Sequence record: MH363708
DNA length: 41,775 bases
Source of the DNA: Escherichia phage C130_2
Strand: one strand, 5' to 3'
The first letter of the stretch is position 1. Each line of letters opens with the position of its first letter. The notes beneath the pieces were generated by a model. It was given only the letters and a program-made list of their open reading frames with translations. It was not told the origin of the DNA and did not search any database. Shown here one piece after another: positions 1 through 40,870 of this stretch. The position numbers were made by a program, and so were the translations under genes.

Positions 1-285
1 TTTCATCGTCTTTGCCTCATTGTTTCGTGAATGTGTGGTGAGCGTACAACAAAGGGGCCGCAGCCGCAAGCCCCTTGATATCCTCCCAGCGAGGCTGGGC
101 TTAAATTGCCCTGTCGCTGCTCTTCGCCAGGTGTCCACCTTTGCCGATCCAGGCGCTGGCGCGCTGGTATTCGCTGGCGATCAACTCGTCGGTAACATAC
201 AGCCCGCCCCGATGATATGCCGCGTTAAACTCCGGCGATTCGTTGTAACCACGGCTCATAGCGTCTGCTATGGCTTCCAGCGCCT
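1..285. repeat. Terminal exact repeat, left copy (identical to 41491-41775)
   Basis: Bases 1-285 match 41491-41775 exactly on direct comparison. Consistent with a circular or circularly permuted genome written with an overlap, or with a short direct terminal repeat. Confidence 0.9.
54..99 (-). terminator. Tandem GC-rich hairpins downstream of gene 101-1222
   Basis: GGGGCCGCAGCCGCAAGCCCC (54-74) and CCCAGCGAGGCTGGG (85-99), followed on the minus strand by a U-rich stretch, then RBS and ATG of the next gene (copy at 41496). Confidence 0.4.
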
Positions 286-1295: not shown

Positions 1296-1345
1296 CCTCA
1301 TATATTAATCGGGTATCAAAACCCACGTTTAACAAAAAGTGCTAT
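1296..1345 (-). promoter_or_regulatory. Promoter-like bipartite element (inverted-repeat motif plus TATA-rich element) for gene 101-1222
   Basis: Minus strand reads ATAGCACTTTTTGTTAAAC, then about 18 nt, then TTAATATATGAGG. Member of the recurring motif family (see findings). Confidence 0.45.
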
Positions 1346-2124: not shown

Positions 2125-3666
2125 TCATTGTTCAGCGAGCGGAGGCATTGAGGCTTGTTTAGCCGTTAGCGTCGTGCCGCCGTTCAACTCGTCAAAGGCT
2201 CGGATATATTGCTTCTCGATCAGGGTGCGGATTGACCGCAGGATGTTTGACCGGTGCGCCCTCAACTTCTCTTCGCAGATCTTCGACAACTCGCTTTGCA
2301 ACGCCTTCCCGCCGCAGTAGTGGATCAGGATATCCAAAACCTTTTGTTCGGCGTTCGTCGGCTTCTGCTTGCCCTCGGCCCGCTCTTTCTTCTTCTCGCC
2401 CTCCAGGTGCGCTTTTAGCTCTTCTGCCAACTGCTCTTCGGTCACGATCTCGCACTGGTTGAAGTAGCCGCCACAATAGGCCGGATCGATAGGCCGCAGA
2501 CCGGCGAGCGGATTCTCTGGGGGGATTGCGTCGGCAAACTCTCGTTCGTACTTCTCACGCTGGGCGCGTTCAAATTCACCCTCGAAGATCGGCATACTGC
2601 GGCGAGTCAGTCGCAGGAGTTGGGCGATCCCCCCACCACGACGCTTGCCCGCAGCCATGATCACTTTTTCGCTGTCGGTCTTGTCCAGGGTCAGCGAAAA
2701 GGTTTTCCACACTGCGCCCTTTGCAGCACCGCCGCCGCGTGATTCAAGCACCAGTGACGCGGATCGCTCGGCTTCCTTCGATACGTGCGGCACAAAGATC
2801 CCGCAAGCACCCAGCGCCGTTGAAAAGCGCTGCCCGCAAAACGTCACATACTGCTGATCGTCGTTGCTGTTTTCGTCAAGGGCTTTGCCGTTGCGCTGGG
2901 CACTGGATAGGTGAAAACTCTTTGAGTCATAAACAACCATGCAGATCCGGCGATCACCTGCAAACTCTCTGATCTCGCTAATCTGACGTGATGCCGTTTC
3001 ACCCCATTTGGGGCGCGGCAGTTTGATGATCTGACCATCGCGCATGACTTCTTTTTGAATGTCCGTAAGGGCTGCGGGCTTATCGTAGATCAGGACGTGA
3101 TCCAGGATGTTAACGCCCCATTCAAGCTGCCATGCGGAAAGGCAGTTGATCACGGTTTCCGCGTCTTCGGTAAAGAATACGCTGATCCCCTTCTTTACGC
3201 GGAAGGCATCAAGAAACGGCCTTCCGGTTGCCACGCACGCTGCCAGCATCGAAAGCAAAGTTGTTTTGCCCACACCTGGCCCCGCGTTAATCTCGTTGAT
3301 CGTCTTCATGTTGAAGAGGTATTCAACAAAGGGCGTTGGCATTTCCGGCTTCGGGTTTTGGATGTACCCACGGATCACCGCTGGCGCTTCCGGTTTTTCC
3401 GGTGCCGGTTGCGGCTGATCCTGCTGCTGATCGTCCTCAACTTCGACGATCCGATCCAGGTGATCTGACAATTCACGATCAGACGGTGGCGGCGCATCAT
3501 GCCCCACGTATTCTGGCGGCAATTCAGGCATGTTGGCATCGTCCAGCACGCCCCAATTGTCCTGCGCTTGCTCGTCCTCTTCCACGTAATGCGGCGGCAC
3601 GTCTTCTGCGTCAATAGGCGCAAACGGGCGCAAATCTTTTTTAGGGTCGAACTTTTCACCAGCCAT
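2125..3666 (-). CDS. Replication protein with RecA-fold P-loop NTPase domain (helicase or initiator-like)
   Basis: 513 aa; acidic and proline-rich N-terminus, Walker A GPGVGKTT, Walker-B-like hydrophobic strand ending in D/E; AAGGAG RBS; adjacent origin-like region. Confidence 0.55.
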   Translation of the reverse strand: MAGEKFDPKKDLRPFAPIDAEDVPPHYVEEDEQAQDNWGVLDDANMPELPPEYVGHDAPPPSDRELSDHLDRIVEVEDDQQQDQPQPAPEKPEAPAVIRGYIQNPKPEMPTPFVEYLFNMKTINEINAGPGVGKTTLLSMLAACVATGRPFLDAFRVKKGISVFFTEDAETVINCLSAWQLEWGVNILDHVLIYDKPAALTDIQKEVMRDGQIIKLPRPKWGETASRQISEIREFAGDRRICMVVYDSKSFHLSSAQRNGKALDENSNDDQQYVTFCGQRFSTALGACGIFVPHVSKEAERSASLVLESRGGGAAKGAVWKTFSLTLDKTDSEKVIMAAGKRRGGGIAQLLRLTRRSMPIFEGEFERAQREKYEREFADAIPPENPLAGLRPIDPAYCGGYFNQCEIVTEEQLAEELKAHLEGEKKKERAEGKQKPTNAEQKVLDILIHYCGGKALQSELSKICEEKLRAHRSNILRSIRTLIEKQYIRAFDELNGGTTLTAKQASMPPLAEQ

Positions 3667-3757: not shown

Positions 3758-3806
3758 AAATAGCACTTTTTGCTAAAACAGATTAATACAGACCATATAT
3801 AGTTAA
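3758..3806 (+). promoter_or_regulatory. Promoter-like bipartite element (site A) for the plus-strand early block
   Basis: AAATAGCACTTTTTGCTAAAACA (3758-3780), 18-bp spacer, CATATATAGTT containing a TATAGT -10-like hexamer; inverted-repeat centre about 42 bp upstream of the predicted start site. Confidence 0.5.
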
Positions 3807-4049: not shown

Positions 4050-4739
4050 ATGCAAAACAAAAAAGTATTCGTTAAAGAGGATCGCTATCTGGTGATCAAG
4101 CGCGCTGACCTGGAAGCGGCAACCGCTGCGGGGCTGCTGTCAGTTGGTCAGATTGCGATCCTGAATAAGATCCTTTGCGAGTCCAGCCGGATCCGCAGCA
4201 ACCGTGGCGCACGCCCGCTGCACGGCCTGTTTGTTGAAAATGACTGGCCTGAATACGACGCCGTTTTAAAGATGATTGCAGACCGCGTGGAAGGCGTGGA
4301 CGGCGCTGATAAGCAGGGGCCGATCCTTTACTGCATCGTTGACGCTGACGGCTTGCCATTCATGCAGGAATACTGCGTTGATCTGGATGCAGCCGCATTG
4401 CAAAAAGAAGTGGACGCGATGAACGAGCAAGACGGGATCCCCCCAGGTGGTGACGGCTTCCGCGTCGTGCCCCTTGAGGTGTACACCATTTCAGGCGCGC
4501 AACAACGCTGGGCCTGGTCAACGATCTTTGATCGCTTCCTGCGCACATTCCCTGAGCAAATGAACGTGCCCAACCGCAACGCAACCACGATGATTGATGA
4601 TCTGCTGGGTGAGTACGGCGAGATCCGCGATAATGCCCAGGCGGTGATCGACGAACTCGAAGAGGCGGCGAGCCATTCACCGGACGCCCGCCCAGCGATC
4701 AACAACGCGATCAAACTTCTCCGGGGTCTGCACAAATAG
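4050..4739 (+). CDS. Hypothetical early protein (229 aa), acidic
   Basis: Long ORF with GAGG RBS; no recognisable motif. Confidence 0.6.
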   Translation: MQNKKVFVKEDRYLVIKRADLEAATAAGLLSVGQIAILNKILCESSRIRSNRGARPLHGLFVENDWPEYDAVLKMIADRVEGVDGADKQGPILYCIVDADGLPFMQEYCVDLDAAALQKEVDAMNEQDGIPPGGDGFRVVPLEVYTISGAQQRWAWSTIFDRFLRTFPEQMNVPNRNATTMIDDLLGEYGEIRDNAQAVIDELEEAASHSPDARPAINNAIKLLRGLHK

Positions 4740-4780
4740 CACTTTTTGTTAAAACGATGGGATAATTACTATATATACTT
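4736..4780 (+). promoter_or_regulatory. Promoter-like bipartite element (site B)
   Basis: ATAGCACTTTTTGTTAAAAC, 18 bp, TATATATACT (TATACT -10-like), upstream of gene 4812. Confidence 0.5.
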
Positions 4781-7545: not shown

Positions 7546-8078
7546 CGTGGGCCGCTGTAGTTGCAGCGATCCAACGGTGGTGGAAGCCAGCCGCGCTGCT
7601 GTTGCTGCTGGGTGGATCCTTCGCCGCCGGCACGGCCTGGAATGATCGGGGCTGGCAAGCAAAATGGGCTGATCGGGATGCAAAAGAATCCTCCCAGGAA
7701 ACGAACGCGCAGACCGCAGCCCGCATGATTGAACAAGGGCGAACCATTGCCCGTGAAGAGGCTGTGAAAGATGCACAACAACAAGCGGCAAAAGCTGCTG
7801 CCACTGCTGCTGGCCTGTCTGCCACTGTTAGCAAGTTGCAGCAACAAGCCGGAAAACTCGCAACCCGCCTGGACGCCGCAAAGCACACCGCAGATCTTGC
7901 CGCTGCCGTCGCAAGCAAGACAACCGGCGCAAACGCCGCAATGCTCGCCAACATGCTCGGAAGCCTTGCAGAAGAAGCTAAATATTATGCTGGAAGATCT
8001 GACGAAAGCTATCGGGCCGGAATGACGTGTGAAAGGATTTACGATCAGGTGCGGGAGTCAAACAACAAGGGGCCATGA
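7542..8078 (+). CDS. i-spanin (Rz-like)
   Basis: ATGA overlap with the endolysin stop; N-terminal TM helix then Ala/Gln-rich coiled-coil periplasmic domain; last gene of the lysis cassette. Confidence 0.65.
7771..8025 (+). CDS. o-spanin (Rz1-like lipoprotein) embedded in the +1 frame of the i-spanin gene
   Basis: Lies entirely within 7542-8078 in another frame; signal peptide with lipobox LLASC, proline-rich mature part with Cys residues; the classic lambda/P21 nested arrangement. Confidence 0.6.
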
Positions 8079-8092
8079 TGGCCCCTTTTTTT
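8069..8092. terminator. Bidirectional intrinsic terminator between the lysis cassette and the convergent Ig-like gene
   Basis: GGGGCCATGATGGCCCC followed by T7 on the plus strand and a U-rich stretch on the minus strand. Confidence 0.6.
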
Positions 8093-8888
8093 ATGCTGCT
8101 GGGTTAACTGTGACCGTGCAAACGTTGCTGGTAACGGTTTTCGGCGCGTTGTTGTTCGCGCTGGTAACGGTGCAACGGAAGCGCTTGCCGCTGTCGGATT
8201 CCTGCGGGGTGGCAAATGTCAGCGTTGGGCCGGTAGCGCCAGTGATGCCGGACGCGCCCCCGTTCGTTACGTTCGTCCAGGTGGCGCCGTCCGTGGACTG
8301 CTGCCACTGGTACGTGTAAGGCAACAAGCCGTCAGCCGCCACAACCGCCAGGCTTGCTGAGGTGCCAGCCGTCCAGGTTGCAGTCGCTGCAAGGTTCGTG
8401 GTCAGGCGGATCGCAACTTTGGTGCGCTCGCGCAGTGATTCCACGGTTTGCCCTGCGGAGTCGGTAACACGGCAGAAGTAATCACCGTTGTTGCTCGCTG
8501 CATAAGACGGGATGTTATAGGTATTCTGATCCGATCCGATTGGGTTATCAGTCGAAGAAGCGCGGCGAAACCATGCGTAATGATACGGCGGGATCCCGCC
8601 TTCCATTTCCACGGTGAAAGTTTTGTTTGCGCCCAGCGCCAGATAAGTTGCCGTGGCGTCACTGCCGTTATTGCCTGGCAGGTTGGTTGCGAAGGTGAGC
8701 GGGGGCACCTGGTTTGGATCCAGTTCGATATAAAACATACCAGTTGGATCCAGCGTGAGTGCTGCCTCTTGCTCTGCGGTCAGGTAGATAACGGAAAGTT
8801 GCGGAGTCTGCCCGCCGTCCGGCCCCGCAATGCGGGTGACTTTCCAGCCCTTAAGGGCGCGATCAGGGTGTCGGTGCCAAAAGCCCAT
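8091..8888 (-). CDS. Ig-like (I-set type) tandem-domain protein, possible virion decoration or adhesin
   Basis: 265 aa; two repeats with the Ig signature (PYHYAWF...GDYFCRV and PYTYQWQQSTDG..W...DSGKRFRCTV); AGAGG RBS. Confidence 0.55.
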   Translation of the reverse strand: MGFWHRHPDRALKGWKVTRIAGPDGGQTPQLSVIYLTAEQEAALTLDPTGMFYIELDPNQVPPLTFATNLPGNNGSDATATYLALGANKTFTVEMEGGIPPYHYAWFRRASSTDNPIGSDQNTYNIPSYAASNNGDYFCRVTDSAGQTVESLRERTKVAIRLTTNLAATATWTAGTSASLAVVAADGLLPYTYQWQQSTDGATWTNVTNGGASGITGATGPTLTFATPQESDSGKRFRCTVTSANNNAPKTVTSNVCTVTVNPAA

Positions 8889-10660: not shown

Positions 10661-10710
10661 GGGTTAACTATATATGGTCATTATGCCGGATGTTTAGCAA
10701 AAAGTGCTAT
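10661..10710 (-). promoter_or_regulatory. Promoter-like bipartite element (site C)
   Basis: Minus strand ATAGCACTTTTTGCTAAACA, 18 bp, CATATATAGTTAACCC; the 16-mer CATATATAGTTAACCC is identical to that at site A. Confidence 0.5.
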
Positions 10711-10734: not shown

Positions 10735-11529
10735 TTAATATGGCACGTTGGCATTTGAGAGGAAAACGGCTTCGGCAAAGCCTCGCGGCGTCACACTCCT
10801 GATCGCCTTTGTCCTGGCATTCCGGCCCCCTGCGGCGTACCAGCCAGGATTGCAGCGCTTCCCGTTGATCAGCTGTATGGGCACCGGATTTTTTGGAGGC
10901 ATCACGAATGCTTCATTGCACCAAATGCCGGTTTTCTTCGGGTACGCATCGCGCGGCGGGTAGATCGTCGGGTAGATCGGGTGAGCGTCCACCTCTGGCA
11001 GATAGCCGCCATACTCGAACGGGTCGAAGGTGTGATCCGGCCTTCTCCACTGCGTGTTAAGCGTGTTAACTGCCGGATTCTCAAGCATCCACGGGATCTG
11101 CTTGCCGTCGCCGTTCTGCATGTCGCAGTAACCAGCAACCCACATCACCAGCTTTGCCAGCCTGATCGCGTCCTGCTGATCCTGTCGGCGGTTCGGGTAG
11201 TTTGGATGCGGGCGGCGCTCGCTGGTTGGCAAGTGCTTATCATCTGGATGATAGAACCACTTCGCGCCGGTGGTGGTTAGGTACGTGCATTCAGCGAAGC
11301 TGGCGACGAACTCAACGCCAGGGCCAACCATGCTGGCGATCTCCTGCGCTTGATTCACGATATCATGAGCCTTGAACCACATCCCCACGCGAACGATCAG
11401 AGGATTGACCGGATCGCGGTGAATGCCGTCAGGGTGTTTGCCGTCGAATAACCAACATTCATAACCTGCCCCCAACCAGGGGGCGGGCATAATGTCCGAT
11501 TCGTTAAAAAGGAAAATGGCTTTGCGCAT
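10735..11529 (-). CDS. Hypothetical enzyme-like protein (264 aa), function unknown
   Basis: Long ORF coupled to the upstream gene; His/Asp/Cys-rich; contains ENP and a C-terminal PRGFAEAV segment only faintly like C5-methyltransferase motifs. No confident assignment. Confidence 0.5.
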   Translation of the reverse strand: MRKAIFLFNESDIMPAPWLGAGYECWLFDGKHPDGIHRDPVNPLIVRVGMWFKAHDIVNQAQEIASMVGPGVEFVASFAECTYLTTTGAKWFYHPDDKHLPTSERRPHPNYPNRRQDQQDAIRLAKLVMWVAGYCDMQNGDGKQIPWMLENPAVNTLNTQWRRPDHTFDPFEYGGYLPEVDAHPIYPTIYPPRDAYPKKTGIWCNEAFVMPPKNPVPIQLINGKRCNPGWYAAGGRNARTKAIRSVTPRGFAEAVFLSNANVPY

Positions 11530-11533
11530 ATTT

Positions 11534-11746
11534 TTACGCCTGATTTTGCGCGCGGTCTAATTCGCGCTCGGTTGCGGTGATCACCACATAATCATGCTTT
11601 TCCATGCTGGCGAAACGAGCCAAAGCACCATCGCTTAAAAGCTGGAAAATAAAGTGATCGGAAACGCGGCTTGTTGATTCAGCCAGATCGCGCAACTGCT
11701 CAAGCTGGGTGACGGTTAATTGTGATGCGTGGATTGCAAATATCAT
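11534..11746 (-). CDS. Hypothetical small protein (70 aa)
   Basis: ATG at 11746 with AAGGA RBS; overlapping stop-start with the upstream gene. Confidence 0.4.
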   Translation of the reverse strand: MIFAIHASQLTVTQLEQLRDLAESTSRVSDHFIFQLLSDGALARFASMEKHDYVVITATERELDRAQNQA

Positions 11747-11958
11747 TGTGCGTGATCCTTTACTGATTGGCGATATTCCGCAAGGTCTTTGCGGGCCATT
11801 TCGGGCCATGATGAAACCGGTGCAACGCGGTATTCATCGAAATAAGAAGCATCAAGACTTTTTGCAAATTCTTCTGCCTCTGCAACGGTGCTGCATTCGC
11901 CGGAACCGATCAGGAATCCGACGATAAAATAAACCCACTGACGTTGTTTATGATCCAC
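11743..11958 (-). CDS. Hypothetical small membrane-associated protein (71 aa), GTG start
   Basis: GTG at 11958 preceded by AAGGGG; hydrophobic N-terminus WVYFIVGFLIGSG. Confidence 0.4.
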   Translation of the reverse strand: MDHKQRQWVYFIVGFLIGSGECSTVAEAEEFAKSLDASYFDEYRVAPVSSWPEMARKDLAEYRQSVKDHAQ

Positions 11959-11968
11959 TTATAACCCC

Positions 11969-12553
11969 TTAAAGGCGCGCTGGCATTACGGCATATTCAG
12001 CAACGCCGTTGTGCGATTTGATTTCGACAAATGCGGCGGTTGTCGCATCCTGTAAAGTAATTTTTACGATACTTGATTTCATCTGCAATGCCTTGCAAAT
12101 GCGCGTGATTACTGCGAAGTATTCGACGTTGAAGCCGATAACCTTTACACCTTCGCGCTTGCTGTCAACTTCCGTAAACACTCGGCGCAAATCAGGATAA
12201 CGCCCATCAACAAGATCCACGGTGCCCACTGCCACGCGCGCTGCCTTCAAATCAACGTCTTTGAGATCTTCCGGCTTATCGTATGCCAGCGGGAGCCAGT
12301 ACACGATCCCCGCGTCAACGTCGATTGCCGCAGTCTCAATGCCGCGCATGTTCGGCACCTTCGACACTTTCAACAATAAGCCGGTTTCCGGCGCGTTGAT
12401 CAGGTCATGCGTCAGACGAAAGGCGCGGTGCCCGTCCGTTGCCTGGATCTGGTTGCCGATGAAATGCAGGGCGTTAAGGTAATAACGCACATCGTTTTGC
12501 GCCTGGCATAAATGAGCCGCTTTAATGTGCTGCGCTTTTGCAAAAATAATCAT
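11969..12553 (-). CDS. DnaN-like protein: truncated beta sliding clamp homolog (domains II-III only)
   Basis: 194 aa. Blocks NDVRYYLNALHF..ATDGHRAFRL, DLVDGRYPDLRRVF, IGFNVEYF and C-terminal AEYAVMPARL match, as recalled, the E. coli beta-clamp segments QDVRYYLNGMLF..ATDGHRLAV, KLVDGRFPDYRRVLP, IGFNVSYV and AAYVVMPMRL. Has its own AGAGG RBS and ATG, with no domain I upstream. Confidence 0.7.
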   Translation of the reverse strand: MIIFAKAQHIKAAHLCQAQNDVRYYLNALHFIGNQIQATDGHRAFRLTHDLINAPETGLLLKVSKVPNMRGIETAAIDVDAGIVYWLPLAYDKPEDLKDVDLKAARVAVGTVDLVDGRYPDLRRVFTEVDSKREGVKVIGFNVEYFAVITRICKALQMKSSIVKITLQDATTAAFVEIKSHNGVAEYAVMPARL

Positions 12554-12600
12554 AGTCTTTGCCTCTTCTGGTAAAGCCCCATTGCTGGGGCTGTATCGCG

Positions 12601-13329
12601 TTATAAGACGCTTGCGGAAGCGTCCAGCATATCTTGCTTAGTAAGATAATCCGTCTTCACTGGCCCGCGTTTGCGTGGCTTAATCAGGAATAGTGAACTT
12701 GCCTTACTGTTTTTCCGGCCTTCCACTTCGGTTGCCGCATTCACGAATGCTACGCGCCCGTTATGGAATTTTTCTTCGCCTTTGGCGTCGGTGCCGTAAT
12801 AGCCCATGATGTTTACAATCTCGCTGCACGCCTGGATCATGTCATAGAACCATTGCGGCGAGTGGTCATGATTCAGAAGCATAACCGTTGTCACGCCATG
12901 CTGTTTTGCATTTCGTGCTGCTGCTGCAACCCAGGGGATCGGGTCTGCATACGGTGGATTACACCAGACGGTTTCCCCCTCCTTGCCCCATGCCACCTGC
13001 GGATCCAGCGCGTTTTGCTGCTCGTCGATAAACTCAACGCAAAGGGCGTTTCCGGCCTCTGCCGCAACGTCACGCGCGAACGGCCCCCAGCGGTGATCGG
13101 CATAGTTAAACAACCATTTTGGGGTGCGCCATTTCTGCCGGATAGCGTCAGGGGTTTTGCTCTTCGCAAAGCGTCGGCCCGTAATGACCTGATCCACTTC
13201 CTCCGGGGTTGCCGCCAGCGCGCCAGCGCCAGCCGCTTTCAATGCCTCTTCCAGCACCGCTTGCGGGATCGCAAAGTCTGCTGCCACCTGCGCAAGATCA
13301 ACGGTCTTGCTGTCGTTTTCGTCTTTCAT
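12601..13329 (-). CDS. DNA N6-adenine methyltransferase (phage Dam-like)
   Basis: Catalytic motif WCNPPY; ATG at 13329 overlapping the dUTPase stop (TGATG). Confidence 0.8.
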   Translation of the reverse strand: MKDENDSKTVDLAQVAADFAIPQAVLEEALKAAGAGALAATPEEVDQVITGRRFAKSKTPDAIRQKWRTPKWLFNYADHRWGPFARDVAAEAGNALCVEFIDEQQNALDPQVAWGKEGETVWCNPPYADPIPWVAAAARNAKQHGVTTVMLLNHDHSPQWFYDMIQACSEIVNIMGYYGTDAKGEEKFHNGRVAFVNAATEVEGRKNSKASSLFLIKPRKRGPVKTDYLTKQDMLDASASVL

Positions 13330-13781
13330 CACTTCGCCTTTTTATCAGTTGAGCCAAAGCCGTTGGCACCGCGTGCCGTGTCTTTGATCGTTTCCACTTC
13401 CGCGATCTGCCACTGCGGCGCGTCAACGATCATGCCCTGGGCAATAGCCGTGGTTGGGTCAATGGCTGGATATTCGCCGGTAGGGCGATCAGAAACGATT
13501 TTTACTTTCACCTCTCCGGTATAGTCGCTATCGATCACCCCCACGCAATTTGACAAGCGCGCATCCTGCTTGAATCCGTGCCCGCTGCGGCTGTAAATCA
13601 TCAGGGCTTTGCCCTTCGGAATGTCGAATACCAGCCCCGTTGAGAAGATCAGGGCGTTGATTTTTTCGTCGTAACTGCTTTCGATCCCGTAAATGTCGAA
13701 ACATGCTGATCCCTCGGTTGCATATTCTGGCAGACGCGCCAGGGGGTTTAACTTCTTAACGCCTAACACATTTGATCCCAT
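13329..13781 (-). CDS. dut: dUTP diphosphatase (dUTPase)
   Basis: Motifs SRSG, GVIDSDYTGE and C-terminal RGANGFGST characteristic of trimeric dUTPases; GAGG RBS. Confidence 0.85.
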   Translation of the reverse strand: MGSNVLGVKKLNPLARLPEYATEGSACFDIYGIESSYDEKINALIFSTGLVFDIPKGKALMIYSRSGHGFKQDARLSNCVGVIDSDYTGEVKVKIVSDRPTGEYPAIDPTTAIAQGMIVDAPQWQIAEVETIKDTARGANGFGSTDKKAK

Positions 13782-13811: not shown

Positions 13812-13857
13812 ATACTATATATAAAGACTTTGCAAACGCTTTAGCAATTCGTGCTAT
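13812..13857 (-). promoter_or_regulatory. Promoter-like bipartite element (site D)
   Basis: Minus strand ATAGCACGAATTGCTAAAGC, 18 bp, TATATATAGTATG, upstream of dUTPase. Confidence 0.5.
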
Positions 13858-20690: not shown

Positions 20691-20704
20691 TCCGGGGTGA
20701 AAAA

Positions 20705-20733
20705 ATAAGGGGCCATTGCGGCCCCTTTTTTTA
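20705..20733. terminator. Bidirectional intrinsic terminator between the plus-strand block and the tailspike gene
   Basis: A-run, GGGGCCATTGCGGCCCC, T7. Confidence 0.65.
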
Positions 20734-22983
20734 TGTTGGCGTGCGGAACGACACAACTTTTGCCGCTGCAAGCTGGGTGCCAGCCGGTGTGGCGGTCTGG
20801 ATAGCGTGAGCAATATCGATCCTGATCTCACTGGTTGGATCGTTCACGTTGACACGATAAGGCCCGCGCGTGATCCACGTAGAAAGAGGATTGCCCCCTT
20901 CACCGGCACCAGGGATCACAATTCGGCACCCTGGCGAAAGTGGCGTTTTGTAGATCCAGACCATATCACCATTATTGCCACCTAGCGGAAAGTTTGAAGC
21001 AATCGAGAAGGATCCCACGGTGGTTGCCTTGATTTTAAATTCATCAATGGCGGGAATGTACGCGCCGGAGGCGGTCACAACGAAGATCTTTCCGTCATTT
21101 CGAACAACGAGATCCCCCTCCATGAACTCACGCCCCGTGGGGAATGCGTTACCATCCCAAATGCCCGTGGCGTTCATATCAGCCGGTGACGGAATGATAT
21201 AAGTGTGATTCGATGCGGTCATTTTTGCACCGATCCCGCCGTCAATCCCCTGGCGCGGATATGGGCGCGCAAAGACGTTGGATCCTACGCTTTCGATATG
21301 CGAATAGGCGCAGCGTGACCAACCTTGATCGCCGTAGCCGTTCACGTCAGTTGCGTTAACGTTGACCATTCGCAAGATGGTGCGCCCCGTGGCAAGGTAG
21401 CCGTTTGAAGCTGTGCCGCCCGATGAATCATCACCCACGCAATCAAAGATCCGGCAATGAACATTGCTCATGTTCAATTCAGTTGCCACACCGAAAAGCG
21501 AGAATTTCGCCACGTTCACATTTTCAATGTAATACGTGTTAGTTGCCCCTGCCTTCTCGGTGCCGATACCGGCATAAAAGCGCCCTGTTTTACTGTATAC
21601 GTTGCGGATCGCCATATCGTGACAAGGGCCGCGCGCGCCAACGCCAGCATTTGTGCCCCATTCAAGCATAATAACGCGCACATCCTGGGCAAGCGTGCTG
21701 CCGGTAACTACCGGTTCACCGTAAACCCCATCAATGGAGCAACGGCGGGAGCCGTAGAAAAGCACCGTCGCAACCGTCAGGCCGGAACCGTTCGAAACGT
21801 TCTGGTTGGGGTCGCCGTGGATGTTTTCAACAACGGAATCACGAACCATTTCGAAGTGTACGATCTGACGCACTTTGTTTGCGTAAACGTTACGGATCGT
21901 AATGTTTTTGGCAAAGTTTGCGTCAGGTGTATCAATGCCATAAGGGCTTTGACCTGCAACCCCAATCCCAATACCCCAGTTTGACGGCGTGATCGGGGCT
22001 TGGCCTGTTGAGTCGATGTTATCAAGGAAAATGCCGTCAATCAGGCAACCATTATCATAATGGCGCTGTACTACGTTTAACTCGATCCCGTCGCCGCCCA
22101 TATCGTAAAACGACAAATTGCGGTAGACGCCGGACACAACCGTTGATCCCGTGCCTTGCTGGAGGATGCCGTAAAGGCCATTCCGAAACTCGGAATCGCT
22201 GACCTCAATAGTGCTTCCGTCCACTGGCACACCCTGCATCATGATTGATGCAACCTTGCTGGTTGTCGGCTTACCGTCAAACATGCAATCGCGGATCCTT
22301 ACGTCGCCGCCGTAGTGCATGATTCGCAGGTTGTTAATCACTGCACCTTCGATCAGGGTGTCAGTCAGGCGAAAATCTGCGGTGCCCTTCCAGGTTCCCC
22401 CCATGATGGTGATCCCATTCGGGTTGACCGTGCTTTCAAGCGTGCCAGACCAACCATAAGCGTTGACGATCTTCCCGTTCGCTTTGGCGTAGTCAAACAT
22501 TGCCTGAATCGCCTGTGAAACGCTGGTGTACTCTTCGCGGCCCACAAAATCAAACGGCGTCACAAAGCCTTGCAGTTTGGTTTTTAGCGTGCCTTCTGGC
22601 GTGCCCACGTATTCCCAGCCGGTAGACGATCCGATCACCTTCCACATCTGCGCCGCGTCATATTCCAGAAGGTTATCAAAGGAATATTGCAGCACGTCAT
22701 TGCGATCATAAACGTCCATGCTTGATGCGGTCTGCGTCACAAAGCGCCCAACAATCCCGTTATATTCGGGATAGCCGCTCTGGTTGATTTTGATCGGCTG
22801 CGGCACCGGCACCAGCGTTAGATCCTCATTTTCCAGGTACACTTGCACCTGATTTGCCGGATCCTTCGGGTTGGTGTCGGGCTTGCCAATATAGATATCA
22901 CCGCCGCTGATAGGCGCAAACTTGCCAACCTGAATAAACGGGCTGGACGGCATACGCACGGCAGAAAAAACAATATCGCTCAT
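20731..22983 (-). CDS. Tailspike protein (P22-like N-terminal head-binding domain, beta-helix receptor-binding domain)
   Basis: ATG at 22983 with GAGG RBS; N-terminus GDIYIGKPDTNPKDPANQVQVYLENED...PIKINQSG..YNG matches the P22 tailspike head-binding domain as recalled; rest is Gly/Asn/Val-rich, consistent with a parallel beta-helix. Confidence 0.85.
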   Translation of the reverse strand: MSDIVFSAVRMPSSPFIQVGKFAPISGGDIYIGKPDTNPKDPANQVQVYLENEDLTLVPVPQPIKINQSGYPEYNGIVGRFVTQTASSMDVYDRNDVLQYSFDNLLEYDAAQMWKVIGSSTGWEYVGTPEGTLKTKLQGFVTPFDFVGREEYTSVSQAIQAMFDYAKANGKIVNAYGWSGTLESTVNPNGITIMGGTWKGTADFRLTDTLIEGAVINNLRIMHYGGDVRIRDCMFDGKPTTSKVASIMMQGVPVDGSTIEVSDSEFRNGLYGILQQGTGSTVVSGVYRNLSFYDMGGDGIELNVVQRHYDNGCLIDGIFLDNIDSTGQAPITPSNWGIGIGVAGQSPYGIDTPDANFAKNITIRNVYANKVRQIVHFEMVRDSVVENIHGDPNQNVSNGSGLTVATVLFYGSRRCSIDGVYGEPVVTGSTLAQDVRVIMLEWGTNAGVGARGPCHDMAIRNVYSKTGRFYAGIGTEKAGATNTYYIENVNVAKFSLFGVATELNMSNVHCRIFDCVGDDSSGGTASNGYLATGRTILRMVNVNATDVNGYGDQGWSRCAYSHIESVGSNVFARPYPRQGIDGGIGAKMTASNHTYIIPSPADMNATGIWDGNAFPTGREFMEGDLVVRNDGKIFVVTASGAYIPAIDEFKIKATTVGSFSIASNFPLGGNNGDMVWIYKTPLSPGCRIVIPGAGEGGNPLSTWITRGPYRVNVNDPTSEIRIDIAHAIQTATPAGTQLAAAKVVSFRTPT

Positions 22984-23035
22984 TGTTGGTGCCTCGTTGT
23001 TGTATTCAGGCTTTAGTGTATAGACGTTCAGGAAA

Positions 23036-23057
23036 TTAAAAAAGGGGCCGAAGCCCC
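23036..23057 (-). terminator. Intrinsic terminator (UUCG hairpin plus U-run) upstream of tailspike
   Basis: Minus strand GGGGC-TTCG-GCCCC followed by TTTTTTT; the 20-mer is identical to the terminator at 31301-31320. Confidence 0.6.
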
Positions 23058-23062
23058 TTTGG

Positions 23063-30956: not shown

Positions 30957-31283
30957 TCACTTATCCTTTTTGGCTGCTTTGCTGTTTTCTTTGCGCTGCT
31001 GCTGCGGCTTCTTGGCGGGCACCTCAGACGCGCCAGCATACGGCAACAACGCTTGATAATGGGTAGGCATTGGGCCGGTGCTTTCGTGGCGTTCTGGTGG
31101 CGCTGGCGTCGCTGCTGGGGCTTCTGCCTTCTTGGGCTGCGGCACGTCCGATGGGTGCGCGTACCAATCGCCGGATTTCAACGCTTCTTCAACGTCTGAA
31201 TCATTGAAAACAGCACTTTTTGCAAAGAATTTACCCCAATAAAGTTTATTCTTGCCTTCGGTGTAAAGCATGGTGGTTGACAT
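30957..31283 (-). CDS. Hypothetical protein (108 aa), Lys/Pro-rich C-terminus
   Basis: ATG at 31283 with GAGGA RBS directly downstream of the coat-gene terminator. Confidence 0.45.
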   Translation of the reverse strand: MSTTMLYTEGKNKLYWGKFFAKSAVFNDSDVEEALKSGDWYAHPSDVPQPKKAEAPAATPAPPERHESTGPMPTHYQALLPYAGASEVPAKKPQQQRKENSKAAKKDK

Positions 31284-31300
31284 GGTGAGATCCTCATATG

Positions 31301-31320
31301 AAAAAAGGGGCCGAAGCCCC
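31301..31320 (-). terminator. Intrinsic terminator after the coat gene
   Basis: Minus strand GGGGC-TTCG-GCCCC followed by TTTTTT; identical to 23036-23057. Confidence 0.65.
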
Positions 31321-31353
31321 TTATTTATACACTTTTCAATCAGGTTGCGCCAG

Positions 31354-32619
31354 TTACGGCACAACGATCTGATTTGTCGCCACAACTGCCACGTATTCTG
31401 GCACCAGGACGTTTGCACCATAAAGCGTGGTGAAACGACAAGTGGTTTCGCCTTTCAGGTGGTCGAATGCGTAGGACATGATCAGGTATGCGCCCTGCTC
31501 AGTGGTCGCCGTCATTACCTGCGGGCCTTGACCGGTAGGGAATGCCAGCTTGCCATACATCAGCTCAACGGAACCATCAGCCCAAAGCAGGTTAGTTGCG
31601 GTTGCGCGCTTGTTAAGCACGGTGATCGCAGCACCCGAAGCGGCGTTGGCCTGTACGTTGGCGTAAGCACGGGATTTCTGATCCGCGTTGTCCAGCGGCA
31701 GGATCTTCGGAGAGATCGTTACGCTGGTGCCCTGCACGCCCAGCACGCGGAATACCTGCGGCTGGTCGGTGGTTTCCTTACCGATCAGATGCACCATATC
31801 CACGCCCTCAATGGTGAAGGCGTCGCCAACTTGCAGACCTGCGCCGGAAACGGTGATCACGCCCTGACGGTTATCAATCGGCAGGTTTGACACCGGATCC
31901 ATTGCTTCCACGGTGTGCGCTGGCGCTGCTGCCAGGGTCAGATCAGCCGTGGTGCCGGTTGGGATGCGTCCAGACTGATCAACCTTGTAGCTGTCGAAGC
32001 TGGCAACGTCTGGAATCTTCGCCTTTTCGAAAGCGGTCTGGTTAATGCCGGAGGTGTAAGAGCGCCCCGCCAGTTCACCTGCGATGTTTTTATAATCGCG
32101 GGCGTTCAGGAATGCGCGCTTAGTGATGCCCATCGGCACGCCGATCATTGTGAAATTGGCGTCAGCGTCTGCGATACCATCCCAAAGATCACGGCCCAGG
32201 GTGCCGGTTGAGTTATCGCCCACACCAACAAAGTTGGTAGCGCGCAAGGTCGCCTGGGTAACGAGATCCAGATCGATTTGCGCAGCGAGGCGTTGACCTG
32301 CGGCGCGGCCCGCTTCTTTCTTGTGTTCGTCGTCGCGCATTTCGTATGCGTCGAGAGTCCACAAAACGTTTTGAGGCGCTTTATACGCCGCTGGCACCTG
32401 ACGCTGTACCAGTTCAGTTTGCGCAGCGTTGGAAACGTCCAGGCCTTCCACAATATCCATGTGGTAGCGCTGCGGGCGGTGGATCACATCACCGGCGCGT
32501 TGCATGGTCTTATCATCTGGACGGAAGATCTTAGCGTTTTTGGAGACTACGCAAGCGGCTTCGAAGCCTTCCACGTACTCTTCAAACAAGATCTCAAGGT
32601 CTTTCGTTAACTGGTTCAT
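31354..32619 (-). CDS. Major capsid (coat) protein, P22-like
   Basis: 421 aa; AGGAG RBS; C-terminal blocks QKSRAYANV and NLLWADGSVEL resemble P22 gp5 (EQRAYANVN, NVFWADDAIRIV) as recalled; strong terminator downstream. Confidence 0.85.
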   Translation of the reverse strand: MNQLTKDLEILFEEYVEGFEAACVVSKNAKIFRPDDKTMQRAGDVIHRPQRYHMDIVEGLDVSNAAQTELVQRQVPAAYKAPQNVLWTLDAYEMRDDEHKKEAGRAAGQRLAAQIDLDLVTQATLRATNFVGVGDNSTGTLGRDLWDGIADADANFTMIGVPMGITKRAFLNARDYKNIAGELAGRSYTSGINQTAFEKAKIPDVASFDSYKVDQSGRIPTGTTADLTLAAAPAHTVEAMDPVSNLPIDNRQGVITVSGAGLQVGDAFTIEGVDMVHLIGKETTDQPQVFRVLGVQGTSVTISPKILPLDNADQKSRAYANVQANAASGAAITVLNKRATATNLLWADGSVELMYGKLAFPTGQGPQVMTATTEQGAYLIMSYAFDHLKGETTCRFTTLYGANVLVPEYVAVVATNQIVVP

Positions 32620-34774: not shown

Positions 34775-34813
34775 GCCCGCCGAAGCGGGCTTGTCTTTAG
34801 CAAAAAGTGCTAT
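34775..34813 (-). promoter_or_regulatory. Inverted-repeat motif copy (site E) plus UUCG hairpin at the portal / insert junction
   Basis: Minus strand ATAGCACTTTTTGCTAAAG overlapping the portal stop codon, followed by GCCCGC-TTCG-GCGGGC; no TATATAG element here. Confidence 0.4.
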
Positions 34814-37050
34814 TGCTGCGGTTGCTGGGTTGCGGTCTGCTGCGCGGCAGATAACAGGCGATCCGCTTCGCGGTTGTCTTGCTCCTGCTGCTGCTGTCCG
34901 AAGCTCTGCAAAAGCTGGATAACCTGCACCAACTGGTTGTGCTCCACGCCCGCTGCGTCTGCCAGCGTCTTGATCGTCTGCGCCTCGGTCAAGCGTCCAT
35001 CCTGGGCGGCTTTGTTGGCGTCCACGTTCAGTTTCAGCGCTTTCAGTTGCAGATCCAAATGCTTGTTTTGCTCGCCCATCAAGGCTGCATCGCCTTTCTT
35101 GTTCTCTGCGATTGCCAGTTGGGTTGCGGCGTCCGGCTGCTGGTTCTGCTTCGACTGCTCCAGCATGGCTTTTTCTTCGTCCGTTTCCGGCTTGATCACA
35201 CCCTGCAAGATCATCTGATTGCGGGCGTACTCGCGGAAGTCCTGCATTCCCTCGCCGTCCATGTTCATGATGATCAGCGCCGCAACAATCGCAGCATTTG
35301 GGCTGGCGTCGCCCATCGTGGCAAGCAAGTTGGTCAGGTTGCGCACGGTGGCTTGACGGCGCGTTGTGCTCGCCTCGCCCACATCGGCTTCAACCTCATA
35401 GCGCCCCTGCGAAAGATCGTTGAGGCCGATCTCTTCTTTCGTGGTGCGGTCAATGATCTTGCCGTCCATCAATACGAACTCATCCGATCCGTCTTCCTGC
35501 ACGATTCGAATATAATCGGTTGATCCGTACACCTCGCGCGCCATTTCACGCCATACGCGCCCCGCGTGGCGCAGGGATTTTGCGAGGTTGTCCATATACA
35601 GCGCGCCTTGCCCGTCCATGCGGGAGAAAATCGCCTCAACGGTTTCCGTTGCCAGGTTGCTTGGCATGTTCTCAAGCTGGCTGGCCCCTACGATCTGTTG
35701 AATCGTGCCGCCCGTGTATTGCAGGATCGCTGCAACGGCTGGGCTTAGTGGGGTTGTCGGGGTGAAGTTGATCACCTGCCCTGCGGCAATAACATTGCCG
35801 TCAGCGTCGCGCAACGAGTCAACCGGCAGGAATGCTGGTCGATCAGTGTTACGATCCCCCCACGCCTGAGCCAGCGGGCCTGGGATCATGTTGATATCCA
35901 CAATCGGGATATTATCGCCGCCACACTGCGCCGCGTTGTCAGCCAGCATGGACACGATCAGGTTTTCCAGGCGCTGCGCATCAACGGCTAACGTAGCGTG
36001 ACCGGCGATCCGCTCCTTGTTGTCCACGAACGAACGGCGGGCATACACGGGGATCAGCGGAATATAACAGCCTGGCAAGCGCTTTGGCTTCTCGATCCAC
36101 TCGCCACCCGATAGGATCCCGCAGTAAACGCGCGGCTTTTTGACGGTGCGGCGGCTCTGCTCTTCAAATCCGCTTTCGCTCAACTCGTCTTTGATATCCT
36201 CGATCTGCTCTTCGTCGTAAACAACGGTTTGCTGCGTGATCGGGTTCAGGTAGCTAACCACGTCCACATCTTCGATCCGCTTCTCGTAGTAGCGCGCCAG
36301 GTAAACAACGTTCGGCGTTACCCAATCAAACTGCTTGCCGGTGTCGATGGTTTCCAGCGCGGCTGGCGGCAGGGCGTCTGGATATTGATCTTCGAAGCTG
36401 TCACGATCCAGGCTGTAAAGCTCGGTGGCCCACATAGCATCACTGCGATCATACTGCTTGCTGTTCTGGTCAAAGAAGACGCACGACGCCGGATCATAGA
36501 CCGGATAGAAACGAATGTTTCGTTGCACGCTTTCGGGGTTGAATGCGTCTTCCTCTTCGGTGTCCATGCGGAAGCAACCAAAGCCGCCCGTTACCGCATC
36601 ATCAAAAGCGTTGTCGATAGCCTCGCCGCCGCTGGACTCGTTGAAGTCGGCGCGAAACTTGCCATTCATCTTGTCGGCTAACTCGTCGGACGCGGCCCCA
36701 TCCTTCGGACGGAATACCACGTTGATCCGGTTCTGGCGGTAGTCGGTAATGATGCGATCAACTTCGCGCGCCAGCTTGTTCAGCTCAAAGCGCGGGTATT
36801 TTTCAAAGCGTTTATCGTCCATCGCCCAACCGGCAGACGTGCTGCCTTCCCACTGCGCACCAACGACACGAACAAAGCGCAGCACTTCGATCATCTTCTT
36901 GCGCGTAGTCTCTTCATTCGCGTACTGTTGCCCAATGCGCTTGCGGGCACGTTCAAAGCAAGCCTCGTCGCGCTTGGTCTGCTCTGCCGCCTCGCGGTTG
37001 CGCTGGCGCGTTTCGCGTGCCTTCTGCGCTGGGGTTTTGCTATTCGCCAT
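34810..37050 (-). CDS. Portal protein
   Basis: 746 aa, GGGAG RBS, directly downstream of the large terminase; size and position as P22 gp1. Confidence 0.8.
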   Translation of the reverse strand: MANSKTPAQKARETRQRNREAAEQTKRDEACFERARKRIGQQYANEETTRKKMIEVLRFVRVVGAQWEGSTSAGWAMDDKRFEKYPRFELNKLAREVDRIITDYRQNRINVVFRPKDGAASDELADKMNGKFRADFNESSGGEAIDNAFDDAVTGGFGCFRMDTEEEDAFNPESVQRNIRFYPVYDPASCVFFDQNSKQYDRSDAMWATELYSLDRDSFEDQYPDALPPAALETIDTGKQFDWVTPNVVYLARYYEKRIEDVDVVSYLNPITQQTVVYDEEQIEDIKDELSESGFEEQSRRTVKKPRVYCGILSGGEWIEKPKRLPGCYIPLIPVYARRSFVDNKERIAGHATLAVDAQRLENLIVSMLADNAAQCGGDNIPIVDINMIPGPLAQAWGDRNTDRPAFLPVDSLRDADGNVIAAGQVINFTPTTPLSPAVAAILQYTGGTIQQIVGASQLENMPSNLATETVEAIFSRMDGQGALYMDNLAKSLRHAGRVWREMAREVYGSTDYIRIVQEDGSDEFVLMDGKIIDRTTKEEIGLNDLSQGRYEVEADVGEASTTRRQATVRNLTNLLATMGDASPNAAIVAALIIMNMDGEGMQDFREYARNQMILQGVIKPETDEEKAMLEQSKQNQQPDAATQLAIAENKKGDAALMGEQNKHLDLQLKALKLNVDANKAAQDGRLTEAQTIKTLADAAGVEHNQLVQVIQLLQSFGQQQQEQDNREADRLLSAAQQTATQQPQQ

Positions 37051-37098: not shown

Positions 37099-37143
37099 AT
37101 AGCACAAATTGCTAAAACATTTCACGGATTAATGATTATAGTA
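37099..37143 (+). promoter_or_regulatory. Promoter-like bipartite element (site G) driving a plus-strand ORF inside the late region
   Basis: ATAGCACAAATTGCTAAAACA, 18-bp spacer, then TGATTATAGTA (contains the TATAGT hexamer). Confidence 0.45.
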
Positions 37144-37524: not shown

Positions 37525-39147
37525 TTATCGGTTGGACGGCACCCGCAGGTTGCTATAGTCCGGCCTGATCTGCGGCTTCGGCGGCTGCATCGTCATGATC
37601 AGACTATCTGCCATGCCTGGTGAGCGGATCTTCAACTTCTCGCGCATTTGCTTTTTCGGCATCCTGCGGAATTTCCCGTTGTTGTCGTAGATACGGGGGA
37701 TCCTGCATAGCTCGGCGCGTAGCTGGGCCATAAATTCACCGATCCCCTCGCTGTCCAGACTGATCAACTCGTCGGGGTTGCTGTACTCCCCGTGCTCAAT
37801 CGCCCTGTATGTCTTTTCAAAGCGACGGCGTAACAGGTAGATATCCTGCGATCCCCTGTCACCAAACTGATCTTTGTTTTTGCGGGTGTTGCGCCCCTCG
37901 GCCTCCTTGTTTAGCCAGTTGTCCAACTCCACTGGCGCTTCGGGATTCTTCACGCCTTCACCGGCCTTGTATTCGTCCACCAGCACGGCAGTATCTTTGT
38001 AAGCCGTGGTGATATCGCGGCGCAGGGCTGCGCCCAGGCCGGAACCATCCCAAAGGAACATATTCACGCCGTGCGCCTTCGCCCAGGTGATCGCCTTGTC
38101 GGCTGAGTCGTTGGCGTCGCCGTCATACCAGGATTGAGCGAAGCAAACAACGCTGCCGTGCCGCTCAATGTACGCCTTGTTATCTTTCCCCACGTCTGCT
38201 GGGTCAAGTGCTGCGATGCGTGCGCCGGTAGGCTTCCAGCCCATTTTCTTATGCGCATCAATGGCGGCATCGAACCATTCAGCCGGAATGATCGCATCTT
38301 CTACGCTGTCGTTAAATGCGCCGTGCCAGATATGATCGAACAAGGCGCGGGAAAGCGTCTTCCGATCAAACTCCATTTCGGCGCGCAGGGCTTCGGGGAA
38401 CCACGGGTTTTTGTCGTAGTTCACTTTGATAACGAGGTGTAGATCATCCTCGTAGATCCCTTTGGCGTCCAGTTCATGCAGGAACGGCACAATAAAGCGC
38501 TGCGAGAATGGATCCTCGCTGCTGCCTGGGTTGGCGGTAAAGATCATGCGCCCGCCTTCCTCGCGCATGGTCGGGGTCAGCTTGCGCAGACTGTCGGCGC
38601 TGAATGTCTGCGACTCTTCACCCCAAAAGCGGGTAAAGCCAAACGCCGATTTTACGCCGTCAGGGTCACGGGCCATGCCTTTAAAGCGGTGCCCGCCGCC
38701 GTTGGCGTGCCTGATCTCGTCGCGCAGGAACTCCAGCCCCTCGATCCCCTGCTTCTCGGCGCACGCCTTTAACAGCGGGTAAACGGAATCTTTGATCGAT
38801 GATTGGAACTCACGGAGGTTGAGCACCTTTGCTGCGTAGTCGTCAACGTCAGCATTGACGATGCGGCCCACGCTTTCTGACTTGCCGGAACCACGGCCCC
38901 CGATGATAACGATAAATCGTTTTGGGCGGGTCAATACCGGCTCCATGACTTCGGGGATCGTCACGGTGTGCGGCTCGGTTGTTTCCACCCAGCGACGGCC
39001 CACGCGCTTAATATTCTTGACGTGGATCGGCATGAAGTCAGACGGGCGATAGATACCGAAAACCGTTTGGGTGTGCGTTTCGATATGGCGCGCCCTCGCC
39101 TCTGCCTGGTTCGTCCGGCGCATAATGTCTTTGAGGTTACGCCCCAT
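37525..39147 (-). CDS. Terminase large subunit
   Basis: 540 aa; Walker A IIGGRGSGKS near the N-terminus, nuclease-like C-terminal half; GAGGA RBS; immediately upstream of the portal gene. Confidence 0.85.
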   Translation of the reverse strand: MGRNLKDIMRRTNQAEARARHIETHTQTVFGIYRPSDFMPIHVKNIKRVGRRWVETTEPHTVTIPEVMEPVLTRPKRFIVIIGGRGSGKSESVGRIVNADVDDYAAKVLNLREFQSSIKDSVYPLLKACAEKQGIEGLEFLRDEIRHANGGGHRFKGMARDPDGVKSAFGFTRFWGEESQTFSADSLRKLTPTMREEGGRMIFTANPGSSEDPFSQRFIVPFLHELDAKGIYEDDLHLVIKVNYDKNPWFPEALRAEMEFDRKTLSRALFDHIWHGAFNDSVEDAIIPAEWFDAAIDAHKKMGWKPTGARIAALDPADVGKDNKAYIERHGSVVCFAQSWYDGDANDSADKAITWAKAHGVNMFLWDGSGLGAALRRDITTAYKDTAVLVDEYKAGEGVKNPEAPVELDNWLNKEAEGRNTRKNKDQFGDRGSQDIYLLRRRFEKTYRAIEHGEYSNPDELISLDSEGIGEFMAQLRAELCRIPRIYDNNGKFRRMPKKQMREKLKIRSPGMADSLIMTMQPPKPQIRPDYSNLRVPSNR

Positions 39148-39568
39148 TCCTGATCATCCTCTCAATGCCCCATAGTGTGCGCACCACGATCATTTCAATG
39201 GCGTATGCCTGGTATTCGTCATTCTCCAGATCCCATTCCTGCCCGCGTGATCGGAAAATGCTGTTAAGCGTGTGGATCGCCTCATGCGCCACCCGCCCTG
39301 CCACTATGGCTGGATCGGCGTCCATCTTCACACTGAGGACGGCAAGATCCCAATTGTCCGGGGTTTGGTATGGCTGGAAGCTGGCACCGTAAGGGCGTCC
39401 GTCTTCCAGGTCTGGCAGGATATCGCGGATCGCGTCGAAGTCTTCCAGAAGATGCACGACAAGCTGCACCCGCCAGGGGTGCAACTCATAGACGTAAAAG
39501 CCAGCCGCTTCTAACTGCTGGATCGTGTTTTTATTCCGCTTCTGTCGTGGTGTCAGTGTCCGTGCCAT
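39137..39568 (-). CDS. Hypothetical protein with HEAIH (HExxH) motif; possible small terminase by position
   Basis: ATG at 39568 with GGAGAG RBS; overlaps the large-terminase start by 11 nt; no recognisable small-terminase motif. Confidence 0.4.
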   Translation of the reverse strand: MARTLTPRQKRNKNTIQQLEAAGFYVYELHPWRVQLVVHLLEDFDAIRDILPDLEDGRPYGASFQPYQTPDNWDLAVLSVKMDADPAIVAGRVAHEAIHTLNSIFRSRGQEWDLENDEYQAYAIEMIVVRTLWGIERMIRNGA

Positions 39569-40124
39569 GCTCGATCTCTCCGCGTTTCGCTGCTTCTGCC
39601 TCTGCCTGGCGGCGTTCGATCTCGTCCAGACGTTCAAGGATCCCGCTGATTTCCTGCACCTCGGCACCCTTCTTGAAGATATCGATCAGGGCGTGCGCGG
39701 CATCAATCGGGATCTCACCCTTCGCCACTGCCACCATGATCGCATCAATGCGCTGGTTTGGTGTCCAGGTCGGATCAAAGTCAAATTCGAAGTGCGGCAT
39801 GGTTGGGCGCTGATACGGGATCAGGCGGGCCAAAATGTCACGGTACATGGAAGGATCTTTCCAGGCCAACTGCAAGCCGCGCTGAATGAAAAGCTCTTCT
39901 GTGAGCGTCACCTCTTCCATCTGGCCTTCGGCGTTCAGTTGCTTAACCTTGACCGTTTGCAGGGCTTGCAATAGCAGGGTGCGGAATTGTGGCCCGCGCT
40001 TCTGGTTGCGTGGGCTTTTCGGTGGCGGGTTATCCTCGCCAAACTTCTTGCCCTCGCCACGGCCTTTGCCTGGGCCTTGCTGTGGGCCATCGTCGATCAG
40101 GGGGTCTTTGTCGTGGTCGATCAT
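39531..40124 (-). CDS. Hypothetical protein (197 aa); alternative small-terminase candidate
   Basis: Basic Gly/Pro-rich N-terminus, acidic C-terminus; weak RBS; overlaps the downstream gene by 38 nt. Confidence 0.4.
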   Translation of the reverse strand: MIDHDKDPLIDDGPQQGPGKGRGEGKKFGEDNPPPKSPRNQKRGPQFRTLLLQALQTVKVKQLNAEGQMEEVTLTEELFIQRGLQLAWKDPSMYRDILARLIPYQRPTMPHFEFDFDPTWTPNQRIDAIMVAVAKGEIPIDAAHALIDIFKKGAEVQEISGILERLDEIERRQAEAEAAKRGEIEHGTDTDTTTEAE

Positions 40125-40547: not shown

Positions 40548-40620
40548 CAATGGTGATCCCCTTCTCAATGCGTAGGGGGCCGGACACGGCCCCGCATACT
40601 TGATAAGCGATGCCGCCCAT
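40420..40620 (-). CDS. Hypothetical acidic protein (66 aa); conflicts with 40188-40547
   Basis: ATG at 40620 forms a TGATG overlap with the upstream gene stop (translational coupling). Confidence 0.3.
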   Translation of the reverse strand: MGGIAYQVCGAVSGPLRIEKGITIDGEYERLAEQEASGIDYAAPEEQGRGAAIEGEDLPPPAGLPD

Positions 40621-40865
40621 CAGCCTAACCAATCCACGGGGCGCACGTCACACAACAACCGTGAGTTTTCAACGTTCACGCCGTCTGCCGATCCGCGCAC
40701 CTGGATAAAGATCCGATGGTACGCCTTATCGCCGTTAAGGCTGGGCTTTATGTCGTAGCCGGTTACGCGGTGCGCTACCCAGCGATCAACGCTGGAAAGG
40801 TGGATCAGCACGTCACAACCCACGGGCGGCAACTGCTCACCATCCCAAATCTGTTTCATGCCCAT
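40620..40865 (-). CDS. Hypothetical protein (81 aa)
   Basis: ATG at 40865 with AGGAG RBS. Confidence 0.5.
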   Translation of the reverse strand: MGMKQIWDGEQLPPVGCDVLIHLSSVDRWVAHRVTGYDIKPSLNGDKAYHRIFIQVRGSADGVNVENSRLLCDVRPVDWLG

Positions 40866-40870
40866 TGTGA

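Follow-up and report, generated by a model that had tools for sequence, protein, structure and literature searches.

An exact 285-bp repeat at the ends of the Escherichia phage C130_2 sequence record is best explained as an assembly overlap on the circular map of a predicted headful-packaging phage

The window, i.e. the whole 41,775-nt stretch of sequence record MH363708 (Escherichia phage C130_2), begins and ends with the same 285 bp. This is very probably not a biological terminal repeat but an overlap left by the assembly of a circular map, in a phage that packages DNA by the headful mechanism. A circular assembly written with an overlap had been proposed in the preliminary description, and this proposal is supported by an Sf6-type large terminase, by a single, internal copy of the equivalent segment in relatives and by arbitrary break points in assemblies of a sibling genome. 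The phage is a virulent Skarpretter-like podovirus with P22-type virion genes, and we infer both headful packaging by this particular phage and an origin of the 285 bp in assembly.

Extent and gene content of the terminal repeat

Comparison of prefixes and suffixes of the window gave matches at lengths of 1 and 285 and at no others. Positions 1-285 are 100% identical to 41491-41775 over 285 nt, leaving a non-redundant genome of 41,490 bp (the 41,775-nt window minus 285). The next-largest direct repeat found in a repeat search reaches just 58 nt at 76% identity, so the identity of the 285-bp pair, the sole long repeat in the window, is beyond chance, bearing out the exact repeat first noticed at both ends. 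The features at the junction are:

1-285 (no strand): left copy of the 285-bp exact terminal overlap, identical to 41491-41775
41491-41775 (no strand): right copy of the 285-bp exact terminal overlap; relatives have one internal copy of the equivalent segment
101-1222 (- strand): ORF, 373-aa gene, homologue of Skarpretter gp40; 3′ 185 nt inside the repeat
41140-41496 (- strand): 118-aa gene, homologue of Skarpretter gp39; its first two codons alone lie in the repeat
41497-41590, equal to window 7-100 (- strand): 94-nt intergenic island with two hairpins (alignment, fold)

Read on the minus strand, the repeat consists of the final 185 nt of the 373-aa gene (61 codons and the stop), the 94-nt intergenic island with GAGG, and ATGAAA, giving a coding share of ~65%. 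In the right copy ATGAAA (41491-41496) runs on into the 118-aa ORF, the body of which occupies 41140-41490, while positions 1-6 of the window are TTTCAT, the reverse complement of ATGAAA. Both the content given in the preliminary description (the C-terminus of gene 101-1222 and two codons of the next gene) and its identification of the reverse complement of ATGAAA at the window start agree with these ORFs and positions. It had also placed the window start precisely at a start codon: the first two codons are indeed found there, but base 1 corresponds to base 6 of the gene, complementing the last position of codon 2, and the break thus lies 3 nt past the ATG. For a break placed at random among about 55 genes on the 41,490-bp unit, p is ~0.017 for lying within ±6 nt of any start codon, or ~0.034 when either boundary counts (about 0.02-0.05). 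These values carry no correction for a criterion chosen after the event, and the start-codon proximity of base 1 is a post-hoc coincidence that is not significant.

The bases just outside each repeat copy are polymorphic among close relatives (41490, C/A after ATGAAA; 286, G/C). These polymorphisms could hint at an assembly-graph branch from a mixed population; local variability is high, however, and chance is a sufficient explanation. Both start-codon proximity and the boundary polymorphisms were rejected as the cause of the break, being judged not significant.

The correct genome unit is 41,490 bp, and one of the two copies (1-285 or 41491-41775) should be removed ahead of gene calling or genome comparison, as the untrimmed window counts a 61-codon gene fragment and a 2-codon stub twice.

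Neither the 373-aa nor the 118-aa gene matched a Pfam or PHROG family. The 373-aa protein is 35% identical to Skarpretter gp40 and has 21 close homologues (369-455 aa), none with a name; in an alignment of related sequences its C-terminal tail is hypervariable, with many indels. In gene calls for four independent contigs a 118-aa gene immediately follows the 373-aa homologue, and its ATG and GAGG ribosome-binding site are kept in 8/8 related sequences aligned, with two allelic forms of the N-terminus among relatives. The window, the sibling contig and STP9 share an intergenic island of identical sequence (100%), which has three variable positions among eight related sequences, with the gene ends on both sides mosaic. 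It carries one hairpin, CCCAGCCTCGCTGGG, and a second, AAGGGGC..GCCCCTT, followed by TGTTGT and then the GAGG ribosome-binding site. The predicted fold has an energy of -26.6 kcal/mol (z only -1.1 vs shuffles). Because a strict terminator scan did not call the hairpin and z is -1.1, the second hairpin can be described as terminator-like purely as a reading of the sequence. Rfam gave no match at the junction or across the whole window, and the conserved intergenic 40-mer is absent from GTDB representative genomes. The island may be a conserved terminator or regulatory element, or a recombination linker between mosaic modules.

Near the junction, the aligned blocks are separated by 22 nt in STP9 (3121-3143) and by about 270 nt in the window (40623-40890). 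This stretch holds an 81-aa ORF (40620-40865) matching PHROG 26831, a family of unknown function, and the SRR13083108 relative also differs in gene content around it; the difference is a small accessory-gene indel.

The junction in relatives and in assemblies of a sibling genome

The equivalent of the 285-bp segment is single-copy and internal in nine related records, with the same genes on either side (373-aa gene homologue, about 94 nt, 118-aa gene). The records reading through the junction are:

STP9, OR754315 (GenBank)
IMGVR_UViG_3300045988_100284
OJJQ01000045.1, OHCS01000175.1 and JADHEE010002000.1 (metagenome contigs)
JBPXFR010000023.1 (separate 41,553-bp contig of Enterobacter hormaechei assembly GCA_051847635.1)
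ERZ27333684 k113_170556
Logan contigs of ERR1293917 and SRR13083108

In Skarpretter, a more distant relative, gp40 is likewise followed by gp39. Since headful and fixed-repeat genomes both assemble as circles, read-through in relatives does not by itself separate the two, and the headful argument is therefore carried by the type of terminase.

Some of these records bear on the host of the lineage. In JBPXFR010000023.1 the homologue of the 373-aa protein is 86% identical (protein) and the 5.3-kb locus compared is 83-95% identical (DNA), which suggests that Enterobacter is a host of the lineage, or carriage in culture. OR754315.1 (‘Stutzerimonas phage vB_SstS_STP9’) is flagged UNVERIFIED_ORG, partial and unannotated, with Stutzerimonas stutzeri given as host, an assignment that looks doubtful for a relative of this enterobacterial-type podovirus. 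IMG/VR entry IMGVR_UViG_2974611538_000001 is the window sequence itself; the exact 373-aa protein is absent from other records, and a search for another assembly of this genome found none.

A sibling genome with a unique length of 41,508 bp is represented by four records with four different break points:

IMGVR_UViG_3300045988_100284: 41,563 bp; exact 55-bp terminal overlap, at the equivalent of window about 27,450
ERZ1755663 NODE_174: 41,563 bp; rotated 26,215 bp vs the IMG/VR sibling; SPAdes-style name
OHCS01000175.1: 41,563 bp; reverse complement, break about 5.7 kb from that of the IMG/VR sibling
ERZ27333684 k113_170556: 41,621 bp; break within the SSB gene; MEGAHIT-style name

Compared over 5-6.5 kb, the sibling records are 100% identical to the IMG/VR copy. 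Record lengths equal 41,508 + k, i.e. 41,563 (+55), 41,621 (+113) and, for the longest recorded contig, 41,635 (+127), where the 55-bp overlap was checked base by base and the values of 113 and 127 were deduced from record lengths and the k113_ name. The SSB gene and the tailspike gene are among the places where breaks fall. Overlaps of 55, 77 or 99 bp remain when an assembler breaks a circular template at random, and circular permutation of contigs with direct terminal repeats (DTR) shows in pairwise alignment (PMC8116208). Given arbitrary breaks and overlaps equal to k in the sibling assemblies, it is the assembler that determines where contigs of this lineage end. The IMG/VR label ‘DTR’ here means ‘circular map, probably complete’, not fixed physical ends. 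One sibling copy begins 8 nt upstream of a start codon.

In the window the signature of an overlap equal to k is absent, 285 not being among the usual de Bruijn values (55, 77, 99, 113, 127, 141). An overlap of this length points to a long k, or to an assembler working by overlap or read extension.

Terminase, virion genes and predicted packaging

The genes most relevant to packaging are on the minus strand:

37525-39147 (- strand): large terminase subunit, predicted Sf6 headful type, 540 aa (Pfam Terminase_3, E 1e-27)
39137-40124 (- strand): two ORFs next to the large terminase on its upstream side, similar to Skarpretter gp34 and gp35 (synteny)
34810-37050 (- strand): P22-type portal protein (Pfam P22_portal, E 8e-155; PHROG 156)
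31354-32619 (- strand): P22-type coat protein (Pfam P22_CoatProtein, E 9e-74; synteny with Skarpretter)

Placement of the terminase as Sf6-type comes from pairwise and profile comparison. In a search of all PDB chains, the large terminase matched Sf6 gp2 (4idh) with E 7e-90 over residues 59-538; the other match, 8dkr, covered the nuclease domain only and was left out of the evidence, and no further solved terminase was matched at E<10. Direct pairwise comparison with Sf6 gp2 gave 38% identity over 481 aa (E 5e-99), and no significant similarity to P22 gp2, T7 gp19 (best E 0.9) or lambda gpA. A terminase related to T7 gp19 or another fixed-repeat clade would point to fixed repeats, and one related to lambda gpA or HK97-type enzymes to the cos type; these comparisons favour neither. 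Large terminase sequences cluster by packaging mechanism, with ‘Sf6-like headful’ a recognised group (PMC5000459), and Sf6 itself packages by headful (PMC4856287). By sequence similarity the large terminase would cluster with Sf6 gp2, the headful type.

Among isolates, the terminase is closest to those of Skarpretter (71% identity), phages of Murrayvirus and Sortsnevirus (about 64%) and Kosakonia phages (52-54%), all of which were deposited with arbitrary start points. The literature searched yielded no experimental termini or PhageTerm data for Skarpretter, Murrayvirus, Sortsnevirus, Giessenvirus or the Kosakonia phages. The sequence leads to a prediction of headful packaging for Skarpretter-like phages, on whose termini the same literature contained no study; if true, it implies some capacity for generalised transduction.

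The gp34- and gp35-like ORFs are, by position, candidates for the small terminase and the pac region. They are of suitable size and match only PHROGs of unknown function; no similarity was detected to PDB entries (phmmer), Pfam families or Sf6 gp1 (BLASTP). The 197-aa ORF upstream of the terminase has only eight close homologues, and an AlphaFold model of its product (pLDDT 50) was unusable.

On this basis, the terminase would start packaging on concatemers near a pac site and cut again, independently of sequence, once the head is full, yielding virion DNA with terminal redundancy and circular permutation. Such molecules, or circles and concatemers inside the cell, would give reads that tile a closed circle, and an assembler traversing this circular map would meet its own starting point and leave the 285-bp overlap; both the break point and the overlap length would then reflect the assembler, not the phage. 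From the size of the P22 chromosome, terminal redundancy might be near 2 kb if capsid capacity is about that of P22.

The virion module is complete and P22-type, with homologues of portal, coat, gp4, gp10, gp7 and gp20 and a tailspike head-binding domain (Pfam). Early and replication genes include those for an AAA_25 helicase-primase-like protein, Erf, an exonuclease VIII-like protein and several methyltransferases. No integrase or other lysogeny gene, and no partition or plasmid-replication gene, was found among the ORFs scanned or mapped to Skarpretter, and the window contains no tRNAs. A DNA-modification cluster (10735-13332, - strand) encodes a Dam-family methyltransferase (Pfam, E 2e-41) and homologues of other Skarpretter methyltransferases, adjoined by genes for a RusA-like resolvase and a dUTPase, and probably serves anti-restriction.

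An 18-nt motif, ATAGCAC-N5-TGCTAAA, with palindromic core TAGCA..TGCTA, is present in eight copies at ≤3 mismatches, vs 0.06 expected (motif scan):

1328-1345 (-), 3760-3777 (+), 4736-4753 (+), 10693-10710 (-)
13840-13857 (-), 31210-31227 (+), 34796-34813 (-), 37099-37116 (+)

The copies are mostly intergenic and oriented toward the downstream gene, with the copy at 31210-31227 within a coding ORF, and in several of them the similarity extends over about 58 nt and takes in a TATATA box; the junction intergenic region has no copy. The motif looks like a set of phage-specific promoters or operators marking transcription units. GC-rich hairpins with a T-run recur at the ends of gene blocks (8054-8098, 20694-20738, 23035-23059 and 31298-31322; GGGGCC..GGCCCCTTTTTTT and AAAAAAGGGGCCGAAGCCCCTT) and are probably shared intrinsic terminators.

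Alternative explanations and comparison with known systems

The 285 bp could instead be a genuine fixed, exact direct terminal repeat of the T7 or N4 style, with the contig ends corresponding to physical genome ends. The repeat is exact, its length falls within that of known short terminal repeats (about 150-500 bp) and matches no standard assembler k, and it sits at the head of a leftward gene block leading into the terminase and structural genes. About 65% of it is coding, which the preliminary description had counted against a biological repeat; coding sequence is certainly present, but this argument is weak alone, as both flanking genes remain intact in a linear molecule with the repeat. 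Also against a fixed repeat are the Sf6-type large terminase with no similarity to T7 gp19, a P22-like virion module of a group known for headful packaging, a left boundary 6 nt into an ORF with no recognisable site, and the relatives: none of the nine related records ends there (0/9), and the breaks of near-full-length relatives are scattered. A fixed repeat would amount to a switch of packaging strategy within an Sf6-like headful clade, with a boundary 6 nt into a gene, and we consider both the switch and the fixed repeat highly improbable.

Two further readings retain assembly as the source of the overlap. In one, the break was biased by a real physical end, such as a cluster of pac cleavages enriching read starts. 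The candidate small terminase and large terminase genes do lie about 1.4-2.3 kb downstream of the break, with strand and direction of late transcription in agreement, and Sf6-type phages reportedly begin packaging series imprecisely over a broad region, as described by Casjens and colleagues in 2004. However, neither a pac site nor a small terminase was found (PDB, Pfam, PHROGs, Sf6 gp1 comparison, AlphaFold), no sequence feature marks either boundary, the sibling assemblies break anywhere, SSB and tailspike genes included, and a genome project, not a virome, is the apparent source of the window; this is the least probable of the explanations considered, and only the slightest likelihood is assigned to it. 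In the other, the overlap derives from assembly of a truly circular intracellular replicon (plasmid-like or carrier-state), leaving virion ends and packaging type free. This would fit the IMG taxon number 2974611538, which is presumably not of metagenome form, and the relative assembled as a separate 41,553-bp contig from Enterobacter hormaechei. Against it, genes for integrase, partition and plasmid replication were absent from the ORFs scanned or mapped, the window has no match in PLSDB plasmids or complete E. coli genomes, the terminase type still predicts headful packaging, and Skarpretter and relatives were isolated as lytic phages (PMC7552041). Such a replicon is very unlikely, if the least so of the three alternatives. 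An overlap from the assembly of a circular map, in a headful-packaging phage, is preferred, and the 285-bp repeat is in all likelihood an ordinary record-keeping artefact that leaves current understanding unchallenged.

Compared with phages having T7-like short terminal repeats, the window is likewise a podovirus sequence of roughly 40 kb with a short, exact direct repeat at each end, but the terminase is unrelated, the repeat is mostly coding and the ends are not conserved among relatives; unlike the T7-like architecture, there is no phage RNA polymerase and genes are found on both strands. With Sf6/P22-like phages (Lederbergvirus) it shares a terminase homologous full-length to Sf6 gp2 and the P22-type portal, coat, gp4, gp10, gp7, gp20 and tailspike N-terminal domain. 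It differs from them in lacking a lysogeny module, in early and replication regions unrelated to the lambdoid type and in a candidate small terminase not recognisably related to Sf6 gp1, and headful packaging is here predicted from sequence.

Skarpretter (Skarprettervirus) shows synteny over the whole genome, with amino-acid identities of 71% (large terminase), 72% (portal) and 75% (coat), although nucleotide identity is only about 65-75% in aligned blocks. STP9 (OR754315) is collinear at 77-97% nucleotide identity, with a 99.3% identical large terminase. The records of both differ from the window in having other arbitrary starts and no terminal repeat. The window also resembles DTR contigs as described for CheckV and IMG/VR: although an overlap of 285 bp is outside the common values of k, the window, like these, has an exact end repeat and a complete genome collinear with relatives that are circular permutations, including a sibling contig with a classic 55-bp k-mer overlap.
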